From contig CASIAW010000005.1 in NCBI GenBank assembly GCA_949372875.1, forward strand, positions 98,586 through 162,585: DNA of 64,000 bases. The letters run 5' to 3'. Below are positions 33,482 to 51,535 of this stretch, in pieces. Positions within the stretch are counted from its first letter, which is position 1, and the number at the start of each line of letters is the position of its first letter. Origin of the DNA: Candidatus Poseidoniaceae archaeon (GTDB taxonomy: Archaea > Thermoplasmatota > Poseidoniia > Poseidoniales > Poseidoniaceae). The position numbers were made by a program, and so were the translations under genes. The notes below the pieces were generated by a model, which searched no databases, was not told where the DNA came from, and saw only the letters and a program-made list of their open reading frames with translations.

Positions 33482-33527
33482 CTACCGGAGAATCAAGTCC
33501 ATGAAAGAAACGGTCAAAACCACTGGT

Positions 33528-33998: not shown

Positions 33999-34109
33999 GA
34001 GTTGCCACACTCGATGGAGGTTTTCAATGCATGTATTGCAAAGCAGTGCATTTTTGTCGCATGTGAGCGAATACGACGGTTCAAAGGTAGGTTCCGTAAC
34101 GGAAGGTCG

Positions 34110-36071
34110 ATGGCGTGGCGTACTTCCAAGCGATGGCTCAACCATCTTGAGCAGCGCGGTGAGTTGTTGAAAATCTCTCGACCGGTTGACGTCCAATTTG
34201 AAGCCGGTGCGATTGCAGACCTGTTAGTCAAGAATGACGGCCCTGCGGTTCTCTTTGAACAACCTCGACTGCCAGATGGTTCGATAAGCGAGATACCACT
34301 GGCCATGAATTTGTTTGGCGGCCAAGACAGGACCCTTCGTGCACTCGGTGCAAGCCATGAGACCGAAATCGGAGACCGAATGGTTGCGATGATGAAGCCT
34401 GACATTGGCCTCTACATGCGCAAACCGTGGAAAGGACTCCCTCTTGTACGAGATGCATTAGCAATGCCTCCAAAAAAGAAGCGAAAAGGGAACTGTCAAC
34501 GCGTGAAATTGCCTCTTGACTTAACGAAACTCCCAATCCCGACGACATGGCCAAAAGACGGTGGTCCGTTTGTTACTCTTCCATTGGTCGTCACAAAGAA
34601 TCCTAAGAATGGAGAGCACAACCTTGGCATGTATCGTGCTCAAGTCTTCGGTCCAAAACAGATCGGACTCCATTGGCAAATTCACAAACATGCTGCAGAC
34701 CATGCTGCAGCCATCAAAGATTCAGGTGGGGACGGACGTATGCCCGTAGCCATTTGCATGGGCGGACCTCCTGAACTTATTTTCTCAGCCATTTCTCCAC
34801 TACCAGACAACCTAAGCGAGTATCAATTTGCTGGAATCTTAGGTCGTAAGTCACTTCCTATTACCAAAGCACTCACCCAGGATTTGATGGTCCCTGCTGA
34901 AGCAGATATTGTGATTGAAGGCTACTGTATTCCAGGCGAGACTCGACTTGAGGGGCCCTTTGGCGACCACTTCGGATTTTATTCATTGACCGGTCAATAT
35001 CCTGTGATGCACGTGACAGCCATTACGTGTCGAAAGGATGCGGTCCTTGCAGCGACCATTGTTGGCCTGCCACCGATGGAAGATGGTCATCTGGGTGAAG
35101 CAATCGGGCGCCAATTTTCTCCAGTCCTCAATTTCCAACATCGAGATGTCAGTAGCGTTCACTTGCCAATGGAAACCGGTTTCCACAATCTTGCCATTGT
35201 ATCTTCAAAACAACGCTATCCACGACAAGGAAGAAAAACTGCCCTTGGATTGCTTGGTGCAGGACAAATGATGTTCTTGAAAACGATGATTGCGATTGAC
35301 GAGGGTCAAAATCCGAAAAACTTGGAAGCGCTGTTAGATGCACTTAACTCAAAAGTCGATATTTCGACTGACGTGCTTGTTCTTGATGGAATGGTTGCTG
35401 ATTCTTTGGAAGCAGCAAGCCCCTATGAAAACGTCCACAGTAAGTTACTGATTGATGCTACGACGCTTGCCCAACGAGATCCACGCTCCGCAAATGACCC
35501 GTTGGAAGGCTCATACAGTCAAGCAACACCTGAGTGGCGTCAAGGAATCGGCAAAGCACCTGGATTCTCTGGCATTGAAGAGGTTCTCAAACTCAAACAT
35601 GTCACTGAGGCGAGAATGCTACGAGACAGCATCATGGTCGTAACGACTCATATCGAAAACACACCAACCCCTCAAGACGGTCAAGATGAGTCAAATGATG
35701 AAGCTGAAGCGGCAAGAAGGGAGCGTATTTCTCAATTGCGAAAATCAATTTGGCAATTGGATAAATCATCCTCACTTCGCTGGCTCTTTATCACCAATGA
35801 TGACCTCGATTTACACTGTGATAAAGCTCGACGTCGCCTCTTGTGGCAACTCACCTCTCGATTTGATGTTGGCCGTGGACTCATGTTTGATGAAAAGAAA
35901 GAGAGACTCTGCTGGGATGCTACGACCCCAATCCCCTCCAAACAATACGGTGTACGCAGATGGCCATCGATTACTCTGCATTCTGCTGAAACATTGGAAA
36001 AGATAGCACAACATCCTGAATTAGAATCATATGAGTGGCCCCCCCACCTCTCTTTCGGGGGACCGAAGTGA
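34110..36071 (+). CDS. ubiD: UbiD-family (prenylated-FMN-dependent) decarboxylase with a C-terminal extension of about 160 aa
   Basis: UbiD-like N-terminus (MAWRTSKRWLNHLEQRGELLKISRPVDVQFEAGAI...) and core. Start moved to the ATG at 34110 (ORF opens at 33936). Confidence 0.75.
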   Translation: MAWRTSKRWLNHLEQRGELLKISRPVDVQFEAGAIADLLVKNDGPAVLFEQPRLPDGSISEIPLAMNLFGGQDRTLRALGASHETEIGDRMVAMMKPDIGLYMRKPWKGLPLVRDALAMPPKKKRKGNCQRVKLPLDLTKLPIPTTWPKDGGPFVTLPLVVTKNPKNGEHNLGMYRAQVFGPKQIGLHWQIHKHAADHAAAIKDSGGDGRMPVAICMGGPPELIFSAISPLPDNLSEYQFAGILGRKSLPITKALTQDLMVPAEADIVIEGYCIPGETRLEGPFGDHFGFYSLTGQYPVMHVTAITCRKDAVLAATIVGLPPMEDGHLGEAIGRQFSPVLNFQHRDVSSVHLPMETGFHNLAIVSSKQRYPRQGRKTALGLLGAGQMMFLKTMIAIDEGQNPKNLEALLDALNSKVDISTDVLVLDGMVADSLEAASPYENVHSKLLIDATTLAQRDPRSANDPLEGSYSQATPEWRQGIGKAPGFSGIEEVLKLKHVTEARMLRDSIMVVTTHIENTPTPQDGQDESNDEAEAARRERISQLRKSIWQLDKSSSLRWLFITNDDLDLHCDKARRRLLWQLTSRFDVGRGLMFDEKKERLCWDATTPIPSKQYGVRRWPSITLHSAETLEKIAQHPELESYEWPPHLSFGGPK

Positions 36072-36991
36072 TGGATGCGAAACAAATCCTGTCTTTCATT
36101 AAAATCGAACACACACTGTTCTCTCTACCATTCGTTCTCATTGGCTATATGATTGCCATAGAACAGTTCAACATCTCACCGGGTATTGACTTACTCTGGA
36201 TTCTTCTTGCTGCTGTGGGTGCACGAGGCCTAGCAATGGCTCTCAATCGAATCATTGACCGAGATATTGATGCTGCTAATCCTCGTACAAAAGACCGTCA
36301 TCTCGCTTCTGGAGCAATGAGTCTGCGTACTGCATGGACGCTTTCGGCTTTCTTCTTCTTTATGCTACTTGTGAGCGCTGGCATGCTCAATACCGTCGCA
36401 CTCATGATGTCGTGGCTACCTGTTCTTGTCTTCGTCATCTACCCCTACATGAAAAGATACACCTGGCTGTGCCATTTCTGGCTTGGTCTTTGCCTGGGTC
36501 TTGCCCCTGCAGGTGCTTGGGTGGCCATGGCTGCAGACGTGCATGGATGGGCAGCCATAACTGGAATGTTCGAAAATGAAACCGTATTTTTGTGGTCAGC
36601 AACAATACTACCTATTTCGTTGGGAGTTGCATTATGGATTGCCGCTTTTGACATCAATTATGCTCGCATGGATGTCGAGAATGACCGTAACAGCGGCATA
36701 CACTCATTCCCCTCCCGATTCGGCGAAGATCTGACAACCCGTGCTACGGTTCAATTGACGCTTGTATGGTTTGCATGTTTTGCCGTCTCCAACCCGATGG
36801 ACGGGGTTTGGTTTCTCGCTGCCGCTGGATTGATGGCAGGGTTGAACATTTGGGTTGTCTTAGCAAAAAACAAGTTTGAAGACTTTCAAACGGTTTTATT
36901 CCGAGCCTCAATGTTGACCGGATGGATGCTTCTGTTTGCACTCATCATCGGTTTCATGCTGGAGCCAAGCGCTGAAGGAATGTTGGACTGA
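36071..36991 (+). CDS. ubiA: UbiA-family aromatic prenyltransferase (4-hydroxybenzoate polyprenyltransferase-like)
   Basis: Asp-rich motif NRIIDRDIDAANPRTKDRHLASG, 8-9 TM helices. ATG overlaps the ubiD stop by 1 nt (TGATG). Confidence 0.8.
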   Translation: MDAKQILSFIKIEHTLFSLPFVLIGYMIAIEQFNISPGIDLLWILLAAVGARGLAMALNRIIDRDIDAANPRTKDRHLASGAMSLRTAWTLSAFFFFMLLVSAGMLNTVALMMSWLPVLVFVIYPYMKRYTWLCHFWLGLCLGLAPAGAWVAMAADVHGWAAITGMFENETVFLWSATILPISLGVALWIAAFDINYARMDVENDRNSGIHSFPSRFGEDLTTRATVQLTLVWFACFAVSNPMDGVWFLAAAGLMAGLNIWVVLAKNKFEDFQTVLFRASMLTGWMLLFALIIGFMLEPSAEGMLD

Positions 36992-37554: not shown

Positions 37555-40500
37555 ATGAAGATTCAAACGCTGTTAATCGTATTGATGCTAACACTTTCTG
37601 GTTGCCTTGGACTCAATGATGCTGGTGAGGAAATCGACCCTGATGATAAATTTCCGAATGATACTGCGGCTTTTTACGATACCGACAACGACGGGTTGCC
37701 TGACGAACTTGATGGCCCATCAACCTCCAACCCTCCATTGATTGCTGATAGTGACGATGATAACGATGGTTTCCCTGATTCAATGGAACTCTCATGTGGA
37801 ACGAATCCGCTATTGGATACATCTTTCCCTGACGACCTTGATGGAGACTTTGAATGCGATGACCAAGATTTCGATATCGATGGAGACGGTATTTTCAACT
37901 CAGCTGATGCCTTCCCCTTGGATGCGACCGCAACTACAGACACTGACGGCGATGGAATGCCTGATACGGTAACTGGTGAATCAACCCTCACAGAAGATAC
38001 CGATGATGACAATGACGGGTGGTCTGATGAAGTTGAAACTGAATGTGGCAGCAATTCCCTGGTTGCTTCACTCACCCCAATAGATGAAAACGGCGACGGT
38101 GTATGTGATTCTGTTTCAACCGATGACGATGGAGATACATATTCTGATGACGAAGAAACACTGTGTGGTTCTGACCCACTTGACGCTTTGAGCATTCCTT
38201 CTGACCTTGACGGCGACTCTATCTGCGATGCACTGGATGAGGACGTCGATGGCGATGGAGTCTCCAACGCACAAGACATGTATCCTAGCGACGCGAGTAA
38301 ACATGAAGATGTGCCCGGATGTATTGATGAAAATGCTTTCAACCACGACATTGGTTCAAACCTCGATGATGGTTCTTGCTTTGGCCCCGAAGAAGCACAT
38401 TCCATGATGTCCGAATTTATGGAAAGCGGTACATGGCACTTTACTACAGAGCAACAAGAAGAGATGGATGAAGGCGAGTTTTATCTGATTCAATCCCTCT
38501 TTGTCAATGATGCTGAGAATGATACAACACTGATTAGTCAAGTGGTCTTGGACGATTCCGGGGAAGAAATGTTCAGCATCAGCTTATTGGCTAAAGATGG
38601 CATCATTGAACTGCATCAATATGCTGATGTTTATTTGGAAGAAGAAGGCCAAACCATTACCATGGATGATGCAGTGCTCATTCACGACCAAATTATGACG
38701 AGTCCTTTCATGGAAGAGAGTGAAACGTGGTATCATTGTGAACAAGATGTGAGCAGTGTATGGTTCTGCTCGAGTTCCTATTTCTTTACCGTGGGTGAAG
38801 AAATTTCTCTCTTCGACTGCGATGATGGAAGTCAGATATATATCTCTCAAGTCAACGATGGCATGACTGACTGCGCAAATGATGAAGACGAACCGAAGTA
38901 TGATGAAACAGAATACAGCGAATTTGAGTGCGACACTGGCGAATATATCTACCTCTCTGAAGTCAATGATGGAAGTCCTGATTGTCCGGCAGGCGATGAT
39001 GAACCAACTTATGACCCAATTACACAGGAAGAAACCTCTAATTTCGAATGTTATGATGGCAGTACAATCCCCCTTTCTTGGGTGAATGATGGAACATATG
39101 ATTGTCCTTACCAGGCTGATGAACCATACTATGAATCTGAAGAAACTTCCGAATTTGATTGTAATGATGAAGTAGATACAATTGCACTTTCCTGGGTCAA
39201 CGATGGATACGAAGACTGCCAAGACGGTTCTGATGAATCAGAGTATAGCGATGCCACTGGCAATGCAGACAGTGCAACAGATACTCTTCACCTGTTTACA
39301 TGTGATGATGGAACTATGATTTTAGCAGAGTATGCTAACGATGACAACAACGATTGTTCTGACGGTTCTGACGAAGCACAAAGTACAGAAGCGACAACGT
39401 ATGAATGTAAGAATGGTGAAGTAATTGACTTTAGCCTTGTCAACGATCAATCAAAGGATTGTACTGATGGTTCTGATGAACAATATGACTTCCAATGCGA
39501 GAATGGAAATTCCATTCCGCTCTCATATGTGAACAATGGATACTCGTACTGTGAAGATGGTTCTGACGAACCTGAGTATGAGGAAGGTGAAGAACTTTCG
39601 ATGTATGATTGCGCTGATGGAAGTCAAGTTTTCCTTTCAACGGTGAACGATGGAAATGATGACTGTAGTGATGGAACTGACGAAAACCCTACGCATCTTG
39701 ATTATGTTGAACTGGTATACTTCTCATGTGAAGAAACTGATTCCGAAATTCCTCTCAGCCTCGTGAACAATGGGGAAGAAGATTGTCAAGATGGTTCCGA
39801 TGAAGCGGAATATGACAGTATGGGTAATGAAATCTCTGAGTATTACTGTGAAGATCCAACGACTTTCGACGAAGAAGATGAAACAGTAATCAACCTCAGT
39901 CAAGTGAATGATGGTACAGAGGACTGTGCTTTTAGCTGGGATGAATGGACATATGTGAGTGAAAACTGGTTCGGAATGGAACGTGATAATGAAGAAGAGT
40001 TGAACGGTGATTGCCAAATTGATGGCGAGGATTTCTTTGTCCCATGGGTCTTCGTGAACGATGGTGATGATGACTGTGATAACGGCGATGATGAACCATC
40101 TTACGACAGTTCTGGCATGGAGACTTCAACAATGACATGCTGGAGTGGCGATATTATTGCACTTTCTTTGGCCAACGATGGCAACAACGATTGTCCCGAC
40201 GGAGATGATGAAATACTCTACATGTATGTGGTTATACTTGAAGGACAAAGCAGTTCTGGAGAAAACTGGTCCTGCATCATACCCTTTGAATACCTCAATG
40301 ATGGAGATGGAGATTGTCAAGGGTACGCCGATGAACCTGAGTATGATAATGGAGAAGAACTTACTTTCTTCGAGTGTGATGATGGAACCCAAATATATCT
40401 CTCTCAAGCAAATGATGGCCTGGCTGACTGCGCAAATGGAGAAGATGAGCCTACGTGGGAAGAAGTAGAATACTCTGAATTTGAATGCAATACTGGCGAT

Positions 40501-42339
40501 TACATCTACCTCTCTAAAGTCAATGACGGAAGTCCAGATTGTCCGGCAGGCGATGACGAACCAACATATGACCCCATAACACAAGAAGAAACTTCAACTT
40601 ACGAATGCTCTTATGATGGCAGTACAATTCCTCTTTCTCAGGTGAGTGATGGAACCTATGATTGCCCTTATGGAGAAGATGAACCGTATACAGAGGAGGA
40701 GGATACTTCTGAATATGAGTGCGCTGATGGTGCGTATACAGTTCCGACCTCCTACATAAATGATCGATATGAAGACTGTGATGATGGTTCCGATGAACCC
40801 GAGTATGACCTCGAGGAAATCAGTGTATTCACATGCAATGATGGAATTGAAATCCCATTGTCTTCGGTAAACGATGATTTCAGTGATTGCTCTGATGGAA
40901 GTGATGAGCCAAATAATTTCGAATGTCTCGATGGTTCATCTCTCTCATGGTACTGGGTAAATGATGGATATGAAGACTGTCAAGATGGTTCTGATGAATC
41001 CGATATTGATTATGTAGGAAACTATGTTTGTCAAGATGGAAATGAAATTCCAATGCAGAATCTTAGAGATGAGTATGCGGATTGTAATGACGGGTCGGAT
41101 GAAATCTACTTCGATGATACTTTTGAAGAATGTGACTGGGATATCGACGATAATATGTGGGCATGCTCTGGAAGTCCAATGCCCGATGGTACATGGAGTT
41201 GGGTCATTGAGAGCGACGGTAGTTGGGCAATTACCTTAGAGCAATCTTACGATACATACTTGATCCTCATTACTCCGGAAATGACCATCAAATCGGTCAC
41301 CAATTACTTCGAAGATGACGACAACTCAGAGACGTATACTGCCGGTCTTGGTGGACATGTTATGTCCCTCAACATGGAACTTAGCGATGCTGCTCCTCCG
41401 TTTATGGTATATTTCGAAGGTATTCCAATTTCCTCAGGCGATGATACTTTCGAATGTGACGATGGGGCATTCATTGCCTTCTCATCCATTAACGACGGAA
41501 ATGAAGATTGCTCTGAAGGTGAAGATGAGCCTCAATACGAACAAAATGAAATTTCCGAGTGGAAATGCGTCACAGGTGAAGATGATGAATGGCTTTGGCT
41601 CTCTCAGGTATCTGATGGCACTCAGAATTGTCTCGATAATTCTGACGAGGACATAACGGCACTCTTTGAGTGTAATGACGGTTCAACAATTACCATCGAG
41701 ATGGTAAGCGATGGAACGAACGATTGTGCAAATGCGGAGGATGAGCCTACGTATGAACAAGGAGATCAAGAGGTTTCTGAGTTTGATTGTTATGATGGTG
41801 AAGAGATTATTCGACTTTCTTGGGTGAATGACGGATATGCTGATTGTGAAGACGGCTCAGATGAAAATCTTGGTGAAGGACATGGACATGGCATGTATGG
41901 AGTATCAACTCTCGGTTTTTCTTCAGAAATGGAAATCATTGAATGGAACGGTGGCTCTCTCACCGACTCAACGAGTGCTGACGGAATGGACCTCGTTCTT
42001 TCAATGTGTGATTCCTTTTCCCACCAGTTCACCGACGAATACATGCTTGTTTCCGAATGTGGTGCTGATGTTCAGCGATGGTCTCTTGCAGATATTTTTG
42101 CAGGGCAAGTTACTGGAATTGAATTTTATGATACTGATGAAAGTGGAACACTCACCGATGGTGACATGTTTGAAATTACTGAAGATCTTGACAATAACCT
42201 CGAATGGAATGCTGTTCGCCTAGCGAAAGGTTCTGCCTACGCAGATGAGAATCCTGAAGTTGTTCTTCCTGGTTTCACAGCTGCTCTTGGCATTATCTCA
42301 ATGCTTGGAGCTGCTCTTCTTGTCCGCAAGAACGAGTGA
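37555..42339 (+). CDS. Giant (1594 aa) acidic surface lipoprotein. Lipobox signal peptide, thrombospondin-type-3-like Asp repeats, about 24 tandem LDL-receptor-class-A-like calcium-cage modules, C-terminal PGF-CTERM archaeosortase sorting signal.
   Basis: MKIQTLLIVLMLTLSGC (lipobox). DTDNDGLPDELD, DSDDDNDGFPD, DTDGDGMPD (TSP3-like DxDxDG). Repeated modules of about 45 aa with consensus [FY]xCxDGSxIxLSxVNDGxxDCxDGSDEPxY. C-terminus LPGFTAALGIISMLGAALLVRKNE (PGF + TM + basic). Confidence 0.85.
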   Translation: MKIQTLLIVLMLTLSGCLGLNDAGEEIDPDDKFPNDTAAFYDTDNDGLPDELDGPSTSNPPLIADSDDDNDGFPDSMELSCGTNPLLDTSFPDDLDGDFECDDQDFDIDGDGIFNSADAFPLDATATTDTDGDGMPDTVTGESTLTEDTDDDNDGWSDEVETECGSNSLVASLTPIDENGDGVCDSVSTDDDGDTYSDDEETLCGSDPLDALSIPSDLDGDSICDALDEDVDGDGVSNAQDMYPSDASKHEDVPGCIDENAFNHDIGSNLDDGSCFGPEEAHSMMSEFMESGTWHFTTEQQEEMDEGEFYLIQSLFVNDAENDTTLISQVVLDDSGEEMFSISLLAKDGIIELHQYADVYLEEEGQTITMDDAVLIHDQIMTSPFMEESETWYHCEQDVSSVWFCSSSYFFTVGEEISLFDCDDGSQIYISQVNDGMTDCANDEDEPKYDETEYSEFECDTGEYIYLSEVNDGSPDCPAGDDEPTYDPITQEETSNFECYDGSTIPLSWVNDGTYDCPYQADEPYYESEETSEFDCNDEVDTIALSWVNDGYEDCQDGSDESEYSDATGNADSATDTLHLFTCDDGTMILAEYANDDNNDCSDGSDEAQSTEATTYECKNGEVIDFSLVNDQSKDCTDGSDEQYDFQCENGNSIPLSYVNNGYSYCEDGSDEPEYEEGEELSMYDCADGSQVFLSTVNDGNDDCSDGTDENPTHLDYVELVYFSCEETDSEIPLSLVNNGEEDCQDGSDEAEYDSMGNEISEYYCEDPTTFDEEDETVINLSQVNDGTEDCAFSWDEWTYVSENWFGMERDNEEELNGDCQIDGEDFFVPWVFVNDGDDDCDNGDDEPSYDSSGMETSTMTCWSGDIIALSLANDGNNDCPDGDDEILYMYVVILEGQSSSGENWSCIIPFEYLNDGDGDCQGYADEPEYDNGEELTFFECDDGTQIYLSQANDGLADCANGEDEPTWEEVEYSEFECNTGDYIYLSKVNDGSPDCPAGDDEPTYDPITQEETSTYECSYDGSTIPLSQVSDGTYDCPYGEDEPYTEEEDTSEYECADGAYTVPTSYINDRYEDCDDGSDEPEYDLEEISVFTCNDGIEIPLSSVNDDFSDCSDGSDEPNNFECLDGSSLSWYWVNDGYEDCQDGSDESDIDYVGNYVCQDGNEIPMQNLRDEYADCNDGSDEIYFDDTFEECDWDIDDNMWACSGSPMPDGTWSWVIESDGSWAITLEQSYDTYLILITPEMTIKSVTNYFEDDDNSETYTAGLGGHVMSLNMELSDAAPPFMVYFEGIPISSGDDTFECDDGAFIAFSSINDGNEDCSEGEDEPQYEQNEISEWKCVTGEDDEWLWLSQVSDGTQNCLDNSDEDITALFECNDGSTITIEMVSDGTNDCANAEDEPTYEQGDQEVSEFDCYDGEEIIRLSWVNDGYADCEDGSDENLGEGHGHGMYGVSTLGFSSEMEIIEWNGGSLTDSTSADGMDLVLSMCDSFSHQFTDEYMLVSECGADVQRWSLADIFAGQVTGIEFYDTDESGTLTDGDMFEITEDLDNNLEWNAVRLAKGSAYADENPEVVLPGFTAALGIISMLGAALLVRKNE

Positions 42340-42364: not shown

Positions 42365-45016
42365 TTAGGACACGAGAGGGTTGGAAACGTATGGCTTTGA
42401 GTCTGTACGTTGAGCCTTAAGGTTGTGAAGAAGAATCGCAGCGCTTGCAGAGAAGATTTGAACAAGAGCGAAAAACGCTTGCCAGGTTAACATGAAGATT
42501 AGTCTTGGATAAGTAGGAGAATATGCATAGAGGCAAAGACATCCCAAAACAAGGAGAGATTGTGCGAGAATAAATGGCATTAGCGGAATCTCTTGTTCTT
42601 GTATGAACATCATCATGACGCACGACGCAATCAAGAGAGGACTTGCAATCATCAAGATCATCCATCCGGTTGAAGGGCTGTTACCAGCTGCGAAATAGCC
42701 TCCTTGAACTGCTACTGCGCCCGGGTCTAATTCTCTTGGGTGTGGACAAATCCCTTCAAAACAGGTTTGAATTCCATTAACTTGACCATAAAGAGTCCAC
42801 CAGAGCAACCACATCAACCAAGGTAACATGGCATAGAACAACCAAAGCCACTGTTGCGATGATTGCCTTCGTTCAAGTCCAGTCCATTTTTTCAAGGCAG
42901 AAACAATTGTTGGGGTGGATGCTAACAAGACGGTAATACAACAAGCAGCCCATGGCCCCCATGAGACCAAAGTATGCAATGCAACTGCATGGATGGTGTG
43001 CATCTTCGAATATTCTCGATTCTCACCGAAAAATGAGTGATGTATAGCAAGCCCATACCCAGCGAGAACAAGGATGAGCATCAATCGCTCAAGAGGGTCA
43101 TAACCGATTTCACGAACGATTACGCCAAGTACGAGTGCTATCCCAAAAAATGTGGTCGCTCGATGCTCATCTTTGGGTAATACGGTGTTTTTCACTACGA
43201 GGAGCATCCAAATGATGAGAAGGCCCGTTAGCAAAAAACCACCTATGCTGACGGCACTCAAATTAATCAGATCTAACATGTAATGCCTTCCAAACAAACG
43301 ACGATGGACCAGAACGATAGCCGATAATGTCAGAGCAAACACTGACAGAAGAGGTATCATAGATTCCTTTGTGCGTTCTGTATCTTTCTCAAGAAGAATT
43401 CCTCCAAGGATGTAATACCAAGGTATGAGGAAAAACCAAAGACGCAGTCCTCCGATACTGATGAGGACAACTGCAAACAGAATGAAAAGGTAATTTCGCT
43501 CTTTCTCATCACTTCTCCAATGTCCCGAGAATGCAAGAACAGAGACGGCAAGCAAGGCGAACATAGCGCTTTGCACCATAGCTTGCGTGAGCGTTCCTTG
43601 GAATACTACTAACGCAAGGAGAGTCAAACCTACGAGGCTCCAAAAACTGGGTTCAAACTTTTTCCATTTAATCGACGTGTTTGGAGCACGACCAAGCGCT
43701 GAGCTTACCAACCAAACCGCACCAAGTGCGCCGAGTCCACGCGGAATCATAGCAGAATAAGCAAGGTTTGCTTGAAAATACATCAATACAAAGCCAAACA
43801 AACCAATACCGCCAAGCTTGATTAATTCGTCTCTTTGAGTCATTTTATTGGCTCCAAACGCATAAGCAACTCCGGCGAGGAGAATGAGTAAAGTGAGAAT
43901 GGATACAATCACATCCAATGTCCTCACTTGAATCGGTTCAGTTTCGATTGATTCCCAATCAACAACCGTTTCTGACAACATGTCTTTGTCTTGAGGATAA
44001 TAAAACACGTGTCTGTTATATCCAGCCTTCCAATTCCATTGCTCCAACGTTGAAATTTCAGAGGATGTGTGGTCCAACATCGCAAGAGGAATCCTTCCTT
44101 GCAGTTGGTTAGGGAAATCGAGAAGCAGTGTGGAGACCATGAATGCGGCGATATCTGGCTGTTTGATGTCAGACCATACTCCAGTATTCACATGCGGTCC
44201 AGAAATAATAGCAGCGACTTCTTGAGTGACTTTTTCAGCAGAACCGTGGGTTCCTGCATCGGTCATGCCGTGATCGGCAGTTATGACAACAGTCCAATCA
44301 GGCGGCACTGTTCGTAAGAGTCGGTCCACTGTCAGGTCAATGGAGAGGAGTTTCTGCCTGTATTCATCGGTTTGAATCCCCCAATGATGGCCGACTTTAT
44401 CCGGTCCAGAAAAGTGTGCAGCAATGACGTTATGTTCTCCGTTTTGAAGCCATTGTGCGGCTACAGTTTCTGTTTCTTCATCGCCTTGATAGTAGTCGCT
44501 ATGGCCTTTGAAAGTATCAACAAAACTGATATTTGGCATACCTTGGTAGATATTCCCCATCACATAGCTTCCAACCATGCCTACAGAATACCTCTCATCT
44601 TGGGATGCGAGAGTCCATGGATCATTGCCACCTGGGTGGCCAAGATTGAAGTTGTTTAATCCATCAATCGGCCTGTTTGGAACTCCAGTCATCAATTCAC
44701 TGATGCATGTCGCAGACAGCGTAAGTGGGCCTGTTTGGATGTTTAATACAGCAGCCGTTTGTTTGTGACTGTTCAGGTTCGGCATGGATTTTTCATCCAG
44801 CATCAATTCTCTTCCAACACCATCCAAAATGATGAGCAGAAATCCTTCGTTTTGACTGATTATGCTCACCGCATCGACTTCTCCAGGTGGAGTGTCTGTG
44901 TCCAGCAAGACATAAGGAGCGGTAATGAACGCTGGAATGAGCATTAAAGCGAGTAGAAAATACAACCACCGTGTTGGAGGTGAACTGTACAGTTCAGCGC
45001 TTTGCGTTGATTCCAT
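42365..45016 (-). CDS. Alkaline-phosphatase-superfamily (type I phosphodiesterase / phosphotransferase) domain fused to a C-terminal polytopic membrane domain. Architecture resembles eukaryotic GPI ethanolamine-phosphate transferases (PigN/PigO-like).
   Basis: N-terminal TM, then FLLIILDGVGRE (metal-binding Asp), GPDKVGHHWG, VVITADHGMTDAGTHGS (AlkP-core His/Asp). After about aa 380 there are at least 12 hydrophobic helices. 883 aa. Confidence 0.55.
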   Translation of the reverse strand: MESTQSAELYSSPPTRWLYFLLALMLIPAFITAPYVLLDTDTPPGEVDAVSIISQNEGFLLIILDGVGRELMLDEKSMPNLNSHKQTAAVLNIQTGPLTLSATCISELMTGVPNRPIDGLNNFNLGHPGGNDPWTLASQDERYSVGMVGSYVMGNIYQGMPNISFVDTFKGHSDYYQGDEETETVAAQWLQNGEHNVIAAHFSGPDKVGHHWGIQTDEYRQKLLSIDLTVDRLLRTVPPDWTVVITADHGMTDAGTHGSAEKVTQEVAAIISGPHVNTGVWSDIKQPDIAAFMVSTLLLDFPNQLQGRIPLAMLDHTSSEISTLEQWNWKAGYNRHVFYYPQDKDMLSETVVDWESIETEPIQVRTLDVIVSILTLLILLAGVAYAFGANKMTQRDELIKLGGIGLFGFVLMYFQANLAYSAMIPRGLGALGAVWLVSSALGRAPNTSIKWKKFEPSFWSLVGLTLLALVVFQGTLTQAMVQSAMFALLAVSVLAFSGHWRSDEKERNYLFILFAVVLISIGGLRLWFFLIPWYYILGGILLEKDTERTKESMIPLLSVFALTLSAIVLVHRRLFGRHYMLDLINLSAVSIGGFLLTGLLIIWMLLVVKNTVLPKDEHRATTFFGIALVLGVIVREIGYDPLERLMLILVLAGYGLAIHHSFFGENREYSKMHTIHAVALHTLVSWGPWAACCITVLLASTPTIVSALKKWTGLERRQSSQQWLWLFYAMLPWLMWLLWWTLYGQVNGIQTCFEGICPHPRELDPGAVAVQGGYFAAGNSPSTGWMILMIASPLLIASCVMMMFIQEQEIPLMPFILAQSLLVLGCLCLYAYSPTYPRLIFMLTWQAFFALVQIFSASAAILLHNLKAQRTDSKPYVSNPLVS

Positions 45017-45145: not shown

Positions 45146-46297
45146 TCAACTGTAGGTTCCAATGTCATCAGAGGTGATGCCATAGTGAGCCCAGACATGC
45201 TCGAGGTGAGCAGTAACGTCGTAGGAGGTTCCAAGTTGAGTAGCGTCTTGAAGGTTCAAGATCTCGTTGATTTTGTCTGCACCGTAGTGTCCATCAAAGG
45301 TTTCGTTTGCTGCGTCACAAGCGGATGCATCAGAGTTTCCGACATAAGTTACGTTTCCGTCAGTGTGGATACATGCATTGGTGTGAGCAGCCGAGTATGC
45401 TTCGATTGCCTTCCAGAATGCATATCCTTCAACTTGATACTTCTCGCCGGACTCGTTGCTGTCCATCTTCGAAGTGTACTTGAGAACTGCTTGGGAGTAT
45501 GTAATGACGAGGTTCTTGACAACGGTGTCTGCTGCTGCAGTGTATCCAGCAGAGTCTCCTGCTTGGAGTGCTGCAAGTCCGTCAACCATTGCGGTTTGAG
45601 AAGCAGTGAGAGCGTTTGAGACGCCATTGGTTTCTGTGCCAAAGTCAGCAGCGCGCTTTTCCATTACCTTAGCAGGAGAGCAGCCGTAGTCTTCATCAGG
45701 TCCGTGGAAGAATGCCCATCCTTCGTCCCAGTTGTGTGGAGCGCCGGAGTCGTTGTCGACGTTTCCAGCATCTGCCTTTGCAATTGCTGAGTTCAACTCG
45801 TGAATAGTGTAAGCAACCATTCCCATGTTAACGGTCAACTTTGCAATACCTTGGTATCGAACGGTGTCAGAAACACCAGCGAAGTCGCCTGTGCCGTCCA
45901 TTGCAGCCATGATGTGGTCATCGACTGAACCGGATGCGTCGTAGTATGCATCGTAGCCGTGGTTCTTACCATCAGCAGACGCAAAGCCAGCGAGTGTGCG
46001 GTAAGAGCCATCGCTTTTTTCTGCATTCTTGCCGTTCATGTAGATGTCCTTTGCAGTTGCGAAGTCGTAGCCGCCATCAGAGCTAGCTGCGGTCTTCATG
46101 TCGCAAAGGTCCTTCATGAGAGAGCGGTGGTTGTCAACATTTGATGCATAGGTGTAGCCACCATCTTCAGCATCCATTGCAACGACCGAATCTGCTGCGT
46201 CCGTCGTTTCGTCTTCTTCTGATGCCAAGCAGCCTGCTAATCCAGAAACTGCCATCAATGCAATCAATACTAATCCTTTCAATTTTGTGTGGTTCAT
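45146..46297 (-). CDS. Secreted lipoprotein of unknown function (DGGY/DGSY-repeat containing)
   Basis: Lipobox MNHTKLKGLVLIALMAVSGLAGC. Repeated ...DGGYTYA..., ...DGGYDFA..., ...DGSYRTLAGF... 383 aa. Confidence 0.6.
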   Translation of the reverse strand: MNHTKLKGLVLIALMAVSGLAGCLASEEDETTDAADSVVAMDAEDGGYTYASNVDNHRSLMKDLCDMKTAASSDGGYDFATAKDIYMNGKNAEKSDGSYRTLAGFASADGKNHGYDAYYDASGSVDDHIMAAMDGTGDFAGVSDTVRYQGIAKLTVNMGMVAYTIHELNSAIAKADAGNVDNDSGAPHNWDEGWAFFHGPDEDYGCSPAKVMEKRAADFGTETNGVSNALTASQTAMVDGLAALQAGDSAGYTAAADTVVKNLVITYSQAVLKYTSKMDSNESGEKYQVEGYAFWKAIEAYSAAHTNACIHTDGNVTYVGNSDASACDAANETFDGHYGADKINEILNLQDATQLGTSYDVTAHLEHVWAHYGITSDDIGTYS

Positions 46298-46492: not shown

Positions 46493-46918
46493 TCAGCAAC
46501 AGCCTTCATCACGCATGGGGGCGCTGATGAAAGTAACCTTATCGACATTGGCAGTATTCTGGAGTTGCTCAATAACCGAACGATAGTGAGATGCCTTTCC
46601 AATGCCTTGGATCACATCGACACACGAATGGCTATGTTTGAGACAGCTGTGGTTGTATGAAGTAATCTCAAGTTCACCGGAGTGACGTAAATCGATAAGT
46701 TTATGCTCATTTCCGTGTTGATAGTAGATGACTAAGTGACCTTCAACGACTGTATCATCATCCATATCTGCTAACTCTCCTCTCTGTTGTATTTCAGCAA
46801 AAAGTAAAGCAGCATCTCGAATGAAGCGACTTCGGTTTTGATATCCTGATTTTTTGATTAAGTCTTCAAAGTCCTCGGCAAATTTTTTATCAGCACTAAA
46901 CGAAATGATTTGGCTCAT
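46493..46918 (-). CDS. nikR: NikR-like metal-responsive transcriptional regulator (N-terminal ribbon-helix-helix + C-terminal ACT-like metal-binding domain)
   Basis: N-terminal DKKFAEDFEDLIKKSGYQNRSRFIRDAALLF resembles the NikR RHH region (...LDxLxxxRGYxNRSEAIRD...). C-terminal domain has HLVIYYQHGNEH and HSCLKHSHSCVDV, His/Cys clusters placed like the NikR high-affinity metal site. 141 aa. Confidence 0.6.
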   Translation of the reverse strand: MSQIISFSADKKFAEDFEDLIKKSGYQNRSRFIRDAALLFAEIQQRGELADMDDDTVVEGHLVIYYQHGNEHKLIDLRHSGELEITSYNHSCLKHSHSCVDVIQGIGKASHYRSVIEQLQNTANVDKVTFISAPMRDEGCC

Positions 46919-47006: not shown

Positions 47007-50000
47007 ATGAACAACAACCGTATGAGAGTCGTTTTCGTAAGCCTGATTATGATTTTTTCAAGCCTTGCTGGATGTATTGGCGATGAAGAATTGGAAGCTA
47101 TTGAAGAGGCCACTGACCTCTTGAATGATGCAACAAACTCCACAATGGATGGCAACAATACCACAACCATTGGGATGTTGGGATCCGTAATGGTTTCAAC
47201 ATACCACGTCGGAGAACTCGTCAAAGCAATCGCTGGCGAACATGTCGACATGGAATACATGAGTCTTGACAACATCCCCGTCCACGATTACGAACCATCT
47301 GCATCGGATCTCATCCGACTTCAGAACTCTGACGTTTTCTTCTACCACGGACTAGGACTCGAACCCTGGGTCGATGCAACGCTTGACTCCTTGGGTAACG
47401 ATGCTCCAACAGCCGTTCAAGTTCACACCATGCCTAGTGGGGAAGAGACCCTCGATTATGAATCGTTACTCGTCTCTGATTTGTGCAAAACTCTCTTAGA
47501 AGGGCCATACGAAACCGTTGAACTTGTTGATGAAGAAGAGCACGCTGATGATGTTAAAATCCTAGCTGAATACATGGCGCATAACATCACATTCCCTCAC
47601 GAAGAGCATGACGACCATGCTGATGAAGAAGGTGACCATGATGACCACGCTGAGGAAGAAGACGGGCATGACGGCCATGCTGATGAAGAAGGCAACCATT
47701 CAGAAGAAGGTCACGAAGACCACGACGCTCATGATGATGGCCACGAAGGCCATGCCCACCTTGTTGCTGAACAAACTCTTTCCAACCCTGCAGGATGTCC
47801 TGCTGACACAATGATTTCCATATTCCACCTCGAAGAAGGGGAATACATCATTGAATTCGATGCAGAACATGCAGATGATTTCACAATGGCAGTTCTCAAG
47901 ATGCTTGGCGGTCACGCACACCACGACCATGGTGACCACGGTGACGAACACGGAGATGAACATGATGACCATGATGGTCATGGTGACGAACACTTCGTTT
48001 GCCACGATATGACAACTCACGAAAACACCAACCACACCACTGAGGAAGAATGTGTAGCCGCAGGCCACATGTGGATGAAAGAAGACGGTCACGACGACCA
48101 TGAAGGCGACTACTGCCACGATACAACAACTCACGAAAACACCAACCATACCACTGAGGAAGAATGTGTTGCCGCAGGCCACACGTGGATGGAAGAAGCC
48201 GATCACGATGACCATGATGGCCACGACGACCATGATGGCCACGACGACCATGACGACCACGATGGCCATGACGACCACGATGGCCATGACGACCCGTGCG
48301 CCGACCACTATGACCACGACGACCATGATGACCACGGAGATCACATGACTGCAGAAGAAGCGCTTGAAGAAGCCGATTCAAACAACGACAGTCTCCTTTC
48401 TTGGGATGAATTCTGGGATTCCTGGAACGACGATGGGCACGATGACCATGACGACCATGACGACCATGATGAAGAACATCACGGCGTCTTCGTATTATTC
48501 CCTGACAACTGCATGCTCATGTATGCTGCTGAAGACGATATGCTGCCTGAAAACGCAACTGGATGGAACCTCACAACATCTGCAATGATGGGAGATGACA
48601 CACTCGAGCTCAATTACTCCGTTCATGAAACATACGGCACTAGTGTCAGTGGAATCAACGGATTTATGGCTCCAGAAGATTATTCCTGGTATTGGCAACT
48701 TATGCTCTGGAACGGCACAGAAAACAACACTGGCTGGGAAGTCAGCAATGTTGGTATTGACTCTGTAATGATTCCTGAAATGACAGAACACGTCGCTTGG
48801 ATGCCAAATTCCTCGGACATGTCATATTTGCCAGACCTCAGTATGATGCATGATGACCATGATGACCATGATGACCATGATGGCCATGATGACTTCGAAA
48901 GAACATTCCACTGCAGTTCTACCGTTGGTGGCACTCCAGACACAGAAATTCCGTTCTCTCAAGTGAACGATGGCACTGAAGACTGTGGCGATGGTTCCGA
49001 TGAGCCTCAAGACTTTGACGGTGATGGTATTGTTGACAACTGGTTCGACTGCATGGATGGTTCAAATGTGTCCATGGAATTCGTTAACGACGGATATGAT
49101 GACTGCCCTGATGGTGATGATGAATCTCACGATGATGACCACAGTGACAATGAAGGAGCGCCAACGCCTCAAGAATTTATCAATATGACTGATACTGACG
49201 GAAATGGAACAATGAGCTTTGATGAATTCATTGCATTCATGAATTCACCTGATCCTGACGGTGAACATGAAGATGATGATGAGTCATTGCCACAATCTAT
49301 GGTTGACGAACTCAGAGTAATATTCGATAACAACGATGCAGATCAGTCCGGAGAGTTAGATCTCGATGAACTCGACCAATTTATCATTGACACGGATGAG
49401 TACTTTATGTCAATGGATGGCGGTGATGGCGAACCGACTCAAGAGGAACTCCAGTTCCTCTTCAACGCATCCGATGCAGACGGCGACCAATTGTTGAACG
49501 TTACCGAACTTGGTGCATTCATGGAAATGCTCGAAGACCTCATGGAAGATGACCACCATGATGATCACGACGACCATGACAATCACGACGACCATGACGA
49601 CCACGGCGACGATAACCACGCTGACGAAGAAGATCACCATCCTGTCGGCTATGTGACCCTTCACGTTAATGCTGAAGGCGACTATGGTTTCGCTCTACCT
49701 ATGGATGTTGAATTCCACATCATGATGGCCGAAGGCGGCCATGACGACCATGCTGGCCATGATGATCACGACGACCATGATGACCATGCTGGAGAAGAAG
49801 GCGACCATGCTGAAGAAGAAGGCGACCATGATGACCACGCTGATGAAGAAGGTAACCATACTGATGAAGAAGGTGACCATGATGACCACGCTGACGAAGA
49901 AGGAGCTCTCGATTATGACCCTCACAGCTGGCTTAGCCCACTTGCTTTCAAGGCACAAGTGAATGTTGTTCTCGACGGACTAACCACTGCTTTCCCTGCT

Positions 50001-50447
50001 GGAGAAGCAGTCTTCAAGGTAAACGCTGAGGCATATGCTGCTCAATTAACAGCTCTTGACGTTTCATTTGACGCTGCCTTCGGAGAAGGCGGCCAATGCA
50101 TGGCTGGAGGTCAACAAAAGACTGTGGCTTCAAACCACAACGCTTACTCCTACATCGCAGTTGAATACGGAATCCAATTCATGACCGTTCACGGACTTGA
50201 CCCAGAAGGAGAACCATCTCCTGAAGATGTCGCTAAGGTTGTTAACTTCATCAAGGAAGAAGGAATCACTGTTCTGTTTGTTGAAGAATACACCGACCAA
50301 TCTTCAGTGCAAAGCATTGTTGATGAAACAGGTGTGTCGATTCAAATCCTTTACACCATGGAAATGGCACCAAGCGATTCTGATGACAATTACATGACAA
50401 TGATGACCAAGAACCTTGCAAACCTCGTAGCCGGTATCGGATGCTGA
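47007..50447 (+). CDS. znuA: ZnuA/TroA-family (cluster-9) metal-binding lipoprotein with an interlobe His/Asp/Glu-rich loop hyper-expanded to about 800 aa, containing EF-hand-like and LDLa-like calcium-binding modules
   Basis: Lipobox MNNNRMRVVFVSLIMIFSSLAGC. N-lobe motif ...DNIPVHDYEPSASDLIRLQNSDVFFYHGLGLEPWV... C-lobe DPHSWLSPLAF...ASNHNAYSYIAVEYGIQ...EPSPEDVAKVVNFIKEEGITVLFVEE... (TroA-like). Between them are HDDHDGHDDHDDHDG-type runs, DTDGNGTMSFDEF / DNNDADQSGELDLDEL / DADGDQLLNVTEL (EF-hand DxDxDG...E loops) and two VNDGxxDCxDGSDE modules. Confidence 0.85.
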   Translation: MNNNRMRVVFVSLIMIFSSLAGCIGDEELEAIEEATDLLNDATNSTMDGNNTTTIGMLGSVMVSTYHVGELVKAIAGEHVDMEYMSLDNIPVHDYEPSASDLIRLQNSDVFFYHGLGLEPWVDATLDSLGNDAPTAVQVHTMPSGEETLDYESLLVSDLCKTLLEGPYETVELVDEEEHADDVKILAEYMAHNITFPHEEHDDHADEEGDHDDHAEEEDGHDGHADEEGNHSEEGHEDHDAHDDGHEGHAHLVAEQTLSNPAGCPADTMISIFHLEEGEYIIEFDAEHADDFTMAVLKMLGGHAHHDHGDHGDEHGDEHDDHDGHGDEHFVCHDMTTHENTNHTTEEECVAAGHMWMKEDGHDDHEGDYCHDTTTHENTNHTTEEECVAAGHTWMEEADHDDHDGHDDHDGHDDHDDHDGHDDHDGHDDPCADHYDHDDHDDHGDHMTAEEALEEADSNNDSLLSWDEFWDSWNDDGHDDHDDHDDHDEEHHGVFVLFPDNCMLMYAAEDDMLPENATGWNLTTSAMMGDDTLELNYSVHETYGTSVSGINGFMAPEDYSWYWQLMLWNGTENNTGWEVSNVGIDSVMIPEMTEHVAWMPNSSDMSYLPDLSMMHDDHDDHDDHDGHDDFERTFHCSSTVGGTPDTEIPFSQVNDGTEDCGDGSDEPQDFDGDGIVDNWFDCMDGSNVSMEFVNDGYDDCPDGDDESHDDDHSDNEGAPTPQEFINMTDTDGNGTMSFDEFIAFMNSPDPDGEHEDDDESLPQSMVDELRVIFDNNDADQSGELDLDELDQFIIDTDEYFMSMDGGDGEPTQEELQFLFNASDADGDQLLNVTELGAFMEMLEDLMEDDHHDDHDDHDNHDDHDDHGDDNHADEEDHHPVGYVTLHVNAEGDYGFALPMDVEFHIMMAEGGHDDHAGHDDHDDHDDHAGEEGDHAEEEGDHDDHADEEGNHTDEEGDHDDHADEEGALDYDPHSWLSPLAFKAQVNVVLDGLTTAFPAGEAVFKVNAEAYAAQLTALDVSFDAAFGEGGQCMAGGQQKTVASNHNAYSYIAVEYGIQFMTVHGLDPEGEPSPEDVAKVVNFIKEEGITVLFVEEYTDQSSVQSIVDETGVSIQILYTMEMAPSDSDDNYMTMMTKNLANLVAGIGC

Positions 50448-50671: not shown

Positions 50672-51535
50672 ATGGTAGTGCTTAATATGCAACCTCCAGC
50701 CGATAACAAAGTGATGGAAGAAGCGGCTGCAATCCTAAAAATAAAGGATTTGACCGTAAGCCGTTCCGGAAAAGTGGTTATCCACGACATCAATCTAAGC
50801 GTACGTAAAGGCGAATTTATCGGTTTAGTTGGACCCAATGGTAGCGGTAAGTCAACGCTTCTTCTGTCCATTCTTGGCGTTTTGAGAGCCCAGCAAGGCT
50901 CTATTCAGATATATGGTCAAAAACCAATGTCAAGAAGCATTCTGGGTAAAATTGGCTGGGTCTCTCAAGCTGCAGCGGTCATGCCGAAGAACGTGAGAAT
51001 TACAGTTCGAGAACTCGTCCAACTAGGTACCTTAAACTCGAGGAATATGTTTTGGCGAAGAAAGGGAATCCATCGTGAAAAAGTGGACCAGGCAATGAAA
51101 ATGGTTGGATTAGAAGGGGTTGCAGACAATGACATAGCGCGACTTTCAGGAGGGCAGCGTCAGCGTGCTGTTATTGGTCGTGCTCTTGCATCCGATGCAC
51201 AATTTATCTTGTTGGATGAACCTCTCGTGGGTATTGACCGAGAATCTCGAAACTCGTTACTCAAGTTATTAGACAAGCTCTGCCATGATGAAAATAAAAC
51301 TATCCTGATGGTCTCACACGATCTCGCTGCGATTCGTCAAACCGCTCACCGTATGATTTATCTTGAAGAATCTATACGATTTGACGGGCTAACTGAAGAC
51401 TTCCCTGACCTTACAACCCTTGCTGGATTACGCGGCATTGAACCAGTGCATGGTCATAGCCATGACAAAAATATTCCGAAATCAATTGTTCTTGGGACTG
51501 AGAAGAATGAACATTCCAATAAGGAGGAAGAATAA
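50672..51535 (+). CDS. znuC: ABC transporter ATP-binding protein (ZnuC/TroB-like, metal-type ABC)
   Basis: Walker A GPNGSGKSTLL, ABC signature LSGGQRQRAVIGRAL, Walker B FILLDEP, H-loop MVSHDL. Confidence 0.85.
   Translation: MVVLNMQPPADNKVMEEAAAILKIKDLTVSRSGKVVIHDINLSVRKGEFIGLVGPNGSGKSTLLLSILGVLRAQQGSIQIYGQKPMSRSILGKIGWVSQAAAVMPKNVRITVRELVQLGTLNSRNMFWRRKGIHREKVDQAMKMVGLEGVADNDIARLSGGQRQRAVIGRALASDAQFILLDEPLVGIDRESRNSLLKLLDKLCHDENKTILMVSHDLAAIRQTAHRMIYLEESIRFDGLTEDFPDLTTLAGLRGIEPVHGHSHDKNIPKSIVLGTEKNEHSNKEEE

Follow-up and report, generated by a model that had tools for sequence, protein, structure and literature searches.

An uncharacterised 883-residue membrane enzyme of the alkaline-phosphatase superfamily, almost confined to Marine Group II archaea

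What would a marine archaeon do with a protein whose layout resembles that of the eukaryotic GPI ethanolamine-phosphate transferases (GPI-ETs), which put ethanolamine phosphate on GPI anchors? The question is raised by a gene in a 64,000-nucleotide stretch of a Candidatus Poseidoniaceae genome (the window). A first-pass annotation had recognised in its product an N-terminal alkaline-phosphatase (AlkP) domain, a very long membrane domain, and a resemblance of the whole to PigN and PigO.

Gene, family and layout

The gene is complete and spans 42365..45016 on the minus strand, where all the features given below also lie. It has an ATG start and comprises 883 codons plus a stop. One homologue, also of 883 aa, is 97% identical; a further 178 clusters bring the family to no fewer than 179 at the 90% identity level, every one of them named "hypothetical". 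Given that these homologues are alike in length, and that certain residues are invariant down to 22% identity, the ORF is not a chance one. The family is essentially restricted to Poseidoniales (Marine Group II, MGII, archaea), with 291 stretches confirmed by tblastn in species-representative genomes. Of the 80 best loci, 76 belong to MAGs of Poseidoniales or related archaea; the four at the bottom of the ranking are soluble Streptomyces proteins. It is near-universal in the order, which we count in favour of a transferase (see below), and it splits into three paralogous clades. The gene studied here belongs to clade A, and clades A and B occur together in at least two MAGs. Our literature searches found the family described nowhere; one paper on a GlcNAc-phosphodiesterase concerns the EEP fold and is unrelated to this protein. 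The 883-residue membrane enzyme is uncharacterised, and it is found almost only in MGII archaea.

Hydropathy and an AlphaFold model (pLDDT 84.9, pTM 0.86) concur on three parts: an N-terminal signal-anchor helix (aa 14-37, 44906..44977, hydropathy 2.3), an alpha/beta catalytic domain of the AlkP superfamily (aa 58-346, 43979..44845), and a family-specific polytopic membrane domain of about 17 helices (aa 366-871, 42404..43921). Lysine and arginine number 14 per 85 residues in the cytoplasmic loops versus 5 per 81 outside, and in this topology model the N-in signal anchor puts the catalytic domain outside the cell. The two-part layout proposed at first reading is therefore real, and the earlier count of 12 or more transmembrane (TM) helices was right, if conservative. 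The model and the topology count also settle the order of the domains: the AlkP domain comes first, as in GPI-ETs and not as in EptA or LtaS.

The catalytic domain and its relatives

The N-terminal domain had been likened to type-I phosphodiesterases, and the profile searches bear this out. Pfam family PF01663 (Phosphodiest) matches it with E = 6e-13 and 49.5 bits, against a cut-off of 23, and also matches above the gathering threshold in 10 of the 10 distant family members tested; PF01676 (Metalloenzyme) matches at 1.2e-7. Foldseek relates the domain with probability 1.0 to YejM, Xac NPP, ENPP1 and sulfatases (target-normalised TM-scores of 0.5-0.6), and its top matches in the PDB are the periplasmic domains of YejM/PbgA (E = 3e-6). 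Residues D65, T99, H201, D206, H210, D248, H249 and H257 are invariant in 22 sequences with identities down to 22%. Judging from the alignments with NPP and PIGO motifs, D65, D206, H210, D248, H249 and H257 are the metal ligands, a complete bimetal set of the NPP/GPI-ET type, and T99 is the putative nucleophile.

The first ligand, D65, sits in the motif ILDGVG (aa 63-68, 44813..44830), which aligns with ...SIDGLR of Xac NPP. T99, invariant in the three clades, lies in TGPLTLSATC (44705..44734) and aligns with PPTTT of PIGO. The metal site with H201, D206 and H210 is the motif HFSGPDKVGH (44387..44416), aligned with HFLGVDHCGH of PIGO, HLLGCDTAGH of Mcd4 and the D..GH motif of NPPs. The site with D248, H249 and H257 is DHGMTDAGTHGS (44240..44275), which aligns with GDHGMTMNGDHGG of PIGO and TADHGMSAFGSHGDG of Mcd4. 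Here the last His ligand comes 8 residues after DHG, whereas in NPPs it lies around 100 residues downstream. Together with ILDGVG, the other two strings singled out in the first-pass annotation are found in the protein: GPDKVGHHWG within aa 204-213 and ITADHGMTDAGTHGS at aa 245-259.

How close is this domain to that of GPI-ETs? The comparators were database proteins retrieved with PIGN, Mcd4, PIGO and Gpi7 baits, and only retrieved real proteins were used; one of them, P0169, matches the Mcd4 bait at 100% identity, and the unconfirmed Gpi7 bait was left out. With PIGO/Gpi13, PIGG/Gpi7 and PIGN/Mcd4 our protein has in common the N-terminal TM helix, the exoplasmic or luminal AlkP-type domain and the long polytopic C-terminal domain, as well as the motifs HxxGxDxxGH and DHGMxxxGxHG and a post-catalytic stretch, KQxDI...P....G..P, which in the hhalign comparison with PIGO and Mcd4 reads KQxDIAxxM...FPxxxxGxIP. 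The catalytic domain is aligned by hhalign at 99% (E = 4e-18), over aa 94-321 with PIGO and aa 192-323 with Mcd4/PIGN. No more than 23-29% of the catalytic-domain residues are identical.

The family HMM gives PIGO 60-68 bits, more than any solved hydrolase and well above the 38 bits of the best solved NPP, ENPP7. This speaks for a transferase. The same HMM scores a soluble Streptomyces PF01663 protein that lacks TM helices at 59.8 bits, versus medians of 59.5 for PIGO and 41 for PIGN, and with an HMM of the wider family the values are 79.3, 81 and 49. Since this soluble protein scores the same as PIGO, the catalytic core is not specifically of the GPI-ET type. Hence, of the proposed PigN/PIGO-like enzyme, the domain order and the catalytic motifs stand, and the specific kinship of the catalytic core does not.

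Several other members of the superfamily come near in part. The soluble PF01663 enzymes (the Streptomyces protein, L081; ENPP7, ENPP4 and Xac NPP) are alike in catalytic fold and ligand set, and the Streptomyces protein even has DHGxxxxGGHGG, but they lack a membrane domain and are hydrolases or of unassigned function. In EptA/MCR-1, EptB/C, LtaS, OpgB and BcsG, bacterial lipid head-group transferases, a polytopic membrane domain is fused to an exoplasmic AlkP-superfamily domain whose nucleophile is Thr or Ser, and the predicted chemistry is alike. Yet the 883-residue protein is not of their type, for their order is reversed, with about five TM helices at the N-terminus, and their catalytic domain is PF00884 (Sulfatase), which Pfam does not match in our protein and matches in three distant members below threshold only. 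YejM/PbgA, whose domain gives the best structural matches, is non-catalytic and has its TM helices at the N-terminus, whereas our protein keeps every catalytic residue.

The membrane domain

Conservation is as strong in the membrane domain as in the catalytic one, and the invariant residues of the membrane domain are all extracytoplasmic, beside the catalytic domain: SAMIPR, R525, VHRRxxGxH, TWGxW and a hairpin loop with GGY. The VHRRxxGxH motif (43283..43309), with R573 and G576 conserved, follows the eighth helix of the domain and faces outwards. The most conserved element is a loop, WWTLxGQVNGxQxCxEGxCPHPRELDxG....GGYxG..xxPxxxW (42662..42802), which the topology count puts on the extracytoplasmic side. 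It contains a modelled beta-hairpin (strands aa 749-752 and 755-758) and the cysteine pair C752/C757, and every clade keeps GG772-773, P781 and W785 unchanged. Such conservation, with invariant residues on the outer face, suggests that the domain handles substrate and does more than anchor the protein.

The domain, around 500 residues long, is an unclassified fold. It matches no Pfam family, PF04987 and PF19316 being absent at E <= 1. An exhaustive HMMER search of 1.84 billion representatives gave no match to it outside its own family. When the full model was compared with the PDB, which is devoid of any GPI-ET, Foldseek returned matches to the AlkP domain only. With hhalign, the membrane domain scored at most 0.5% against the C-terminal domains of PIGN and PIGO, like reversed controls, but the true paralogs PIGN-C and PIGO-C also reached only 0.4% against each other. 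The test, based on shallow and mammal-dominated profiles, is thus without power, and we dropped it as a negative result. The missing C-terminal Pfam match is not decisive either, since real PIGO proteins, which carry the precomputed pair PF01676 + PF01663, often lack PF19316. Pfam and HMMER detect no sequence relation between the membrane domains of our protein and of GPI-ETs, and hhalign placed the extracytoplasmic Cys-containing hairpin loop of clade A against no part of PIGN or PIGO.

Genomic neighbourhood and candidate function

The first-pass annotation had linked the gene to an adjacent PGF-CTERM protein. A homologue of this neighbour stands beside the gene in 0 of the 76 other loci, and for clade A we rejected such a partnership. 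Across the 77 loci we found no universally conserved partner, and no conserved glycan or lipid biosynthesis operon around the gene, the latter counting against a transferase. The distant members P0132 and P0137, which lie on longer contigs, have no consistent partner (the contigs of P0130 and P0154 are too short to inform). GSDH, transferrin-like and GpsA genes do recur nearby, but this resembles synteny kept within lineages more than an operon. In clade B, the gene is arranged tail-to-tail with one for a PssA-like CDP-alcohol phosphatidyltransferase, an enzyme type that starts the route to an ethanolamine lipid. The arrangement is convergent, not operonic, and specific to clade B, where a small PGF-CTERM protein also adjoins the gene. 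These two neighbours are a weak hint in favour of the lipid or glycan modification proposed earlier.

The reading we prefer, and to which we give about an even chance, is that of an integral-membrane, metal-dependent phospho-alcohol transferase of the AlkP superfamily that modifies the cell envelope of the MGII archaeon. We infer a Zn-dependent enzyme with a Thr nucleophile that would move a head group from a membrane lipid to a cell-surface acceptor; transferase is here the probable class, one that sequence alone does not separate from hydrolase. T99 would attack the phosphodiester of a membrane phospholipid brought by the membrane domain, as in EptA/MCR-1, LtaS, BcsG and PIGN/PIGO/PIGG, giving a covalent phospho-alcohol-enzyme intermediate. 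The head group, most likely phosphoethanolamine or alternatively glycerol phosphate, would then pass to a hydroxyl of a surface acceptor, which may be a glycolipid, a lipid-linked or protein-linked glycan, or a protein, and the three paralogous clades would differ by acceptor or donor. As far as we know, wherever a catalytic domain of the AlkP superfamily is joined to a polytopic membrane domain and has been characterised, it transfers lipid head groups. The homology of the catalytic domain to PIGO and Mcd4/PIGN, experimentally assigned phosphoethanolamine transferases, argues for this class, as do the predicted GPI-ET-like topology with the AlkP domain outside and the PssA-like neighbour of the clade-B copies. 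Against it count the soluble Streptomyces protein, as close as PIGO, and the fact that the solved proteins nearest in sequence are hydrolases: ENPP7 (5e-9, the best PDB match), ENPP4, PhoK and Xac NPP.

The same two observations favour a membrane-tethered ecto-phosphodiesterase or a phospholipase C/D-type hydrolase, the more so as ENPP7, an alkaline sphingomyelinase, cleaves lipids, and the Streptomyces protein is secreted. Such an enzyme would scavenge phosphorus or remodel lipids by splitting phosphodiesters, either those in dissolved organic matter or those in lipids of the cell's own outer leaflet, while the membrane domain would hold it in place or let the product through. Genes for a transferrin/PhnD-like substrate-binding protein and an ABC transporter near the gene in about 30 of the 77 loci would fit this, but the binding proteins look iron-related (Fea1 or transferrin-like), are divergently transcribed and occur in less than half of the loci. 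Moreover, a 17-helix domain of 500 residues with invariant outer-face residues far exceeds an anchor, and we know of no NPP-type hydrolase with a comparable one. We regard a hydrolase as possible, though on the unlikely side. A non-catalytic sensor or scaffold, whose AlkP-like domain would bind a lipid or glycan without turnover as in YejM/PbgA, accounts for the top Foldseek matches, but it is hard to reconcile with metal ligands and a putative nucleophile that are all invariant down to 22% identity, which implies selection for catalysis, or with the five TM helices of YejM being N-terminal to its domain. We consider it very improbable.

A true homologue of GPI-ETs, membrane domain included, would place phosphoethanolamine on a glycolipid and so create the amine to which archaeosortase joins PGF-CTERM proteins, in what would be a GPI-like anchor pathway of archaea. 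The domain order and catalytic motifs of PIGO and PIGN, the PF01676 + PF01663 pair of real PIGO proteins, the number of paralogues (three, as in eukaryotes) and the PssA-like and PGF-CTERM neighbours of clade B all agree with it. It also speaks for this reading that ArtA-dependent anchoring in Haloferax requires both PssA and PssD, with an ethanolamine lipid as the proposed nucleophile (PMC7157517); yet in the proposed model archaetidylethanolamine is used directly, and no such transferase is needed (PMC7157517). Against this reading also stand the lack of sequence signal between the membrane domains, a catalytic core no nearer to GPI-ETs than to a soluble bacterial enzyme, and a PGF-CTERM neighbour in the window that is not kept at other loci. 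Furthermore, the host is a prokaryote without a demonstrated GPI pathway. A Pfam scan of the window's ORFs of at least 150 aa, between 7 and 62 kb, revealed no GPI-pathway gene, and a PIGF/Gpi11-like partner was not seen. A GPI-ET homologue in this full sense is improbable. Its extension to the order, in which Poseidoniales have a three-paralogue prokaryotic counterpart of GPI-ETs that puts phosphoethanolamine on a membrane glycolipid or glycan, as the amine to which archaeosortase A ligates PGF-CTERM surface proteins, and has a diverged PigN/PIGO membrane domain, is more doubtful still.

MGII archaea are the most abundant planktonic archaea of surface oceans and are uncultured; to our knowledge, the chemistry of their envelope is essentially uncharacterised. 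A large, strongly conserved, near-universal enzyme with three clades points to an unrecognised envelope modification in the order Poseidoniales, in which lipids, glycans or proteins would carry phospho-alcohol groups that mass spectrometry could seek directly. It also provides a second, prokaryotic case of an AlkP domain followed by a polytopic domain, an order hitherto known from eukaryotic GPI biosynthesis, and structural comparison could show whether this design arose once or twice.

Architecture of the AlkP protein

The gene at 42365..45016 (minus strand; hereafter the AlkP gene) starts with ATG and encodes 883 aa in the ORF listing. Its product matches PF01663 (type I phosphodiesterase/NPP) in Pfam with E = 6e-13 and 49.5 bits, for a cut-off of 23, and also PF01676 (Metalloenzyme) at 1.2e-7; NCBIfam gave only AlkP-superfamily members below threshold. 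The ORF position and the motifs quoted in the first-pass annotation were all found exactly: ILDGVG at aa 63-68, GPDKVGHHWG at aa 204-213, and ITADHGMTDAGTHGS at aa 245-259. A 19-residue hydropathy scan revealed a single N-terminal hydrophobic segment and a dense run at aa 369-863. The AlphaFold2 model, built with 38 homologues as input, is confident (pLDDT 84.9, pTM 0.86) and shows a helix at 14-37, followed by an alpha/beta domain (aa 58-346) and then by about 17 helices in aa 366-871, in agreement with the earlier proposal of at least 12 transmembrane helices behind the AlkP domain. The predicted cytoplasmic loops hold 14 K/R per 85 residues vs 5 per 81 outside, which fits a predicted topology with the N-terminus inside and the AlkP domain outside.

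Sequence searches of the PDB (phmmer and family profile) matched AlkP-superfamily enzymes only, led by ENPP7 (5e-9, 38 bits with the family HMM) and including ENPP4, PhoK, Xac NPP, and iPGM. The alignments take in the metal motifs D206..H210 and D248-H249, with D65 covered more weakly. Foldseek against the PDB retrieved YejM/PbgA, Xac NPP, ENPP1, and sulfatases at probability 1.0, for the N-terminal domain only. Hence, the protein belongs to the AlkP superfamily and to PF01663, as every feature tested was present. Since both its domain order and its Pfam family differ from those of EptA and LtaS, an enzyme of that type is ruled out.

Comparison with eukaryotic GPI ethanolamine-phosphate transferases

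Because neither the sequence nor the Foldseek search of the PDB gave any GPI ethanolamine-phosphate transferase (GPI-ET: PIGN/Mcd4, PIGO/Gpi13, PIGG/Gpi7), PIGN/Mcd4 and PIGO comparators were drawn from the sequence database. These are real database proteins, retrieved with bait sequences, and their annotation reads "GPI ethanolamine phosphate transferase 1" or "3"; one of them (P0169) is yeast Mcd4. With the family HMM, PIGO scored 60-68 bits and PIGN/Mcd4 40-54 bits. In hhalign, PIGO aligned over aa 94-321 of the AlkP protein and Mcd4 over aa 192-323, both at 99% probability. T99 lies opposite the PPTTT motif of PIGO, HFSGPDKVGH opposite HFLGVDHCGH (PIGO) and HLLGCDTAGH (Mcd4), DHGMTDAGTHG opposite DHGMTMNGDHG (PIGO) and DHGMSAFGSHG (Mcd4), and KQPDIAAFM...FPNQLQGRIPL opposite KQADIASLM...YPKNSVGELPI (Mcd4). 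Therefore, the GPI-ET resemblance put forward in the first-pass annotation is real for the catalytic half. However, it is not specific. Outside the family, the top match among prokaryotic genomes is a secreted Streptomyces PF01663 protein of 497 aa that has no TM helices and carries LDNIDHAGH and TADHGHTDAGGHGG. It scored 59.8 bits with the family HMM and 79.3 with a wider family HMM, indistinguishable from the PIGO medians (59.5 and 81), and the comparison with this soluble protein thus revealed no specific affinity of the catalytic domain for GPI-ETs. The catalytic core thus falls within a PF01663 subgroup that holds GPI-ETs and soluble bacterial enzymes alike.

The membrane domain had no Pfam match at E <= 1, including PF04987 (PigN) and PF19316 (PIGO_PIGG); the precomputed PF19316 match is also missing from many real PIGO proteins. 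An exhaustive HMMER search of 1.84 billion representatives, using a profile of aa 355-883 built from 16 sequences, returned only 53 proteins at E <= 1e-3, and PF01663 was N-terminal in all 10 full-length matches checked (651-878 aa). By HMMER standards, the domain is an orphan that always occurs in fusion with AlkP. In hhalign it reached 0.5% against the PIGN/Mcd4 C-terminal half and 0.2% against that of PIGO, with reversed controls at 0.1%, while the accepted paralogues PIGN-C and PIGO-C gave only 0.4% against each other, so the low values do not speak against homology. As the catalytic domain lacks specific affinity and the membrane-domain comparison is not decisive either way, membership among the GPI-ETs is not established, although the protein is laid out like a GPI-ET and predicted to work like one. 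The strongly conserved elements of the membrane domain all lie in predicted outward-facing loops or helix ends, toward the catalytic domain: SAMIPR (aa 421-426), R525, VHRRxxGxH (aa 570-578), TWGxW (aa 685-689), and a hairpin loop of 40 residues that holds C752/C757 and GGY (aa 743-782).

Distribution and genomic context of the family

The protein search gave 179 homologue clusters at E <= 0.001. Lengths among the 120 listed are 850-942 aa; these entries are unnamed or called "hypothetical protein", some being tagged Euryarchaeota archaeon. With each GTDB species represented by one genome, a scan yielded 291 tblastn-confirmed stretches. Among the 80 best loci, 76 are archaeal and the four lowest-ranked are soluble Streptomyces proteins. 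The labels of nearly all archaeal loci are Poseidoniales, Poseidoniaceae, Thalassarchaeaceae, Marine Group II (MGII), or older generic names; one locus is called "Thermoplasmatota archaeon", and one mislabelled MAG is also among them. The family comprises three clades with a mutual identity of only 23-26%: clade A, which includes the AlkP gene of the window, has HFSGPDKVGH and the Cys-containing hairpin loop, clade B has HLSGLDSVGH, and clade C HLGGTDHAGH. Copies of clades A and B occur together in at least two MAGs. Invariant in all clades are D65, T99, E107, G111, N122, H201, G204, D206, H210, D248, H249, G250, G255, H257, and Q286 in the catalytic half, and R525, G687, G772, G773, P781, W785, and P793 in the membrane half. 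Our literature searches found no publication describing this family.

The window is an MGII chromosome segment whose closest relatives are MGII MAGs (77-82% identical), and the genes around the AlkP gene encode ordinary housekeeping and acidic secreted proteins of lipobox or PGF-CTERM type. Convergent with it, 37555-42339 (+) encodes an extremely acidic surface protein of 1594 aa. Its LDL-receptor class A repeats number in the dozens (Pfam 2.4e-69), and it also has bacterial TSP3 repeats, a lipobox-like N-terminus, and a PGF-CTERM anchor. On the other side, 45146-46297 (-) encodes a lipobox-type secreted protein matching Fea1 (Pfam, E = 1e-30), the low-iron-inducible periplasmic protein known as algal phytotransferrin. 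Next along come a NikR-like regulator (46493-46918) and a ZnuABC-type transporter, with ABC transporter genes at 50672-52449 and a ZnuA-type metal-binding protein (47007-50447, +) enlarged to 1146 aa by an insertion of about 800 residues with His/Asp-rich repeats, EF-hands, and LDL-receptor-A-like Cys motifs. A cluster at 32234-36991 (geranylgeranyl-reductase-like flavoprotein, long 711-aa UbiD-family decarboxylase, UbiA prenyltransferase), some 5 kb away from the AlkP gene, could serve lipid or quinone prenylation chemistry. The window also encodes a presenilin-type signal-peptide peptidase (PF06550; 18150-20369, +) whose N-terminal extension, about 500 residues long, is unannotated, and an 874-aa protein (29546-32170, -) whose sole match is Cytochrom_C_asm across its first 260 residues; AT skew is unusually high (0.24) at 30-32 kb.

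Clustering of ORFs from 77 loci revealed no universal neighbour. In about 30 loci, divergently transcribed upstream genes encode a GSDH-like dehydrogenase and a transferrin/PhnD-like binding protein, at the position equivalent to that of the Fea1-like gene. A bacterial-type, NAD-dependent glycerol-3-phosphate dehydrogenase (GpsA-like) is nearby in 19 of the 77, as at L001 and L003, about 1-6 kb upstream. The PGF-CTERM protein of the window has no homologue beside the AlkP gene in any of the 76 other loci, and only 7 of them have PGF-CTERM-like ORFs in their flanks. The functional tie between these neighbours suggested earlier is therefore unsupported for clade A.

The surroundings of clade B, and of clade B alone, point toward such a link. 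In four MGIIa species (region L063:7926-12086, likewise L059, L061, and L065), the clade-B gene and a CDP-alcohol phosphatidyltransferase gene meet tail-to-tail and share 17 nt. Archaetidylserine synthase/PssA gives the top NCBIfam matches of the transferase, at 4e-19 but below the cut-off. Beyond it lies a protein of 190 aa that ends in a PGF-CTERM-type C-terminus; a GH1 glycosidase also follows. In Haloferax, ArtA-dependent anchoring needs PssA and PssD, and an ethanolamine lipid was proposed as the attacking amine (PMC7157517).

Candidate activity

The active site of the AlkP protein, extracytoplasmic and of the bimetal/Thr NPP/GPI-ET type, is intact and covalently tethered to a large membrane module conserved on its outer face. 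By analogy with what is generally known of EptA/MCR-1, LtaS, BcsG, and PIGN/O/G, T99 would attack the phosphodiester of a phospholipid head group, and the phospho-alcohol would ride on the enzyme as a covalent intermediate before passing to a hydroxyl of a surface acceptor. We regard the chances that the protein is such a transferase as evenly balanced. Two points favour phosphoethanolamine as the group: it is what the closest characterised relatives transfer, and clade B has the PssA-like neighbour.

A hydrolase tethered to the membrane seems unlikely, and a true GPI-ET homologue supplying an ArtA-type anchor improbable. A non-catalytic sensor resembling PbgA, one of the Foldseek matches, is scarcely credible, as the catalytic residues are invariant. 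The family is a lineage-specific set of membrane AlkP enzymes in three clades, present in nearly all MGII archaea, with an unclassified membrane domain of about 500 residues. The GpsA-like neighbour may be relevant to the debate on bacterial-type lipid synthesis in MGII, and the finding would be far more interesting if the membrane domain were homologous to that of GPI-ETs or if the link to PGF-CTERM anchoring held.
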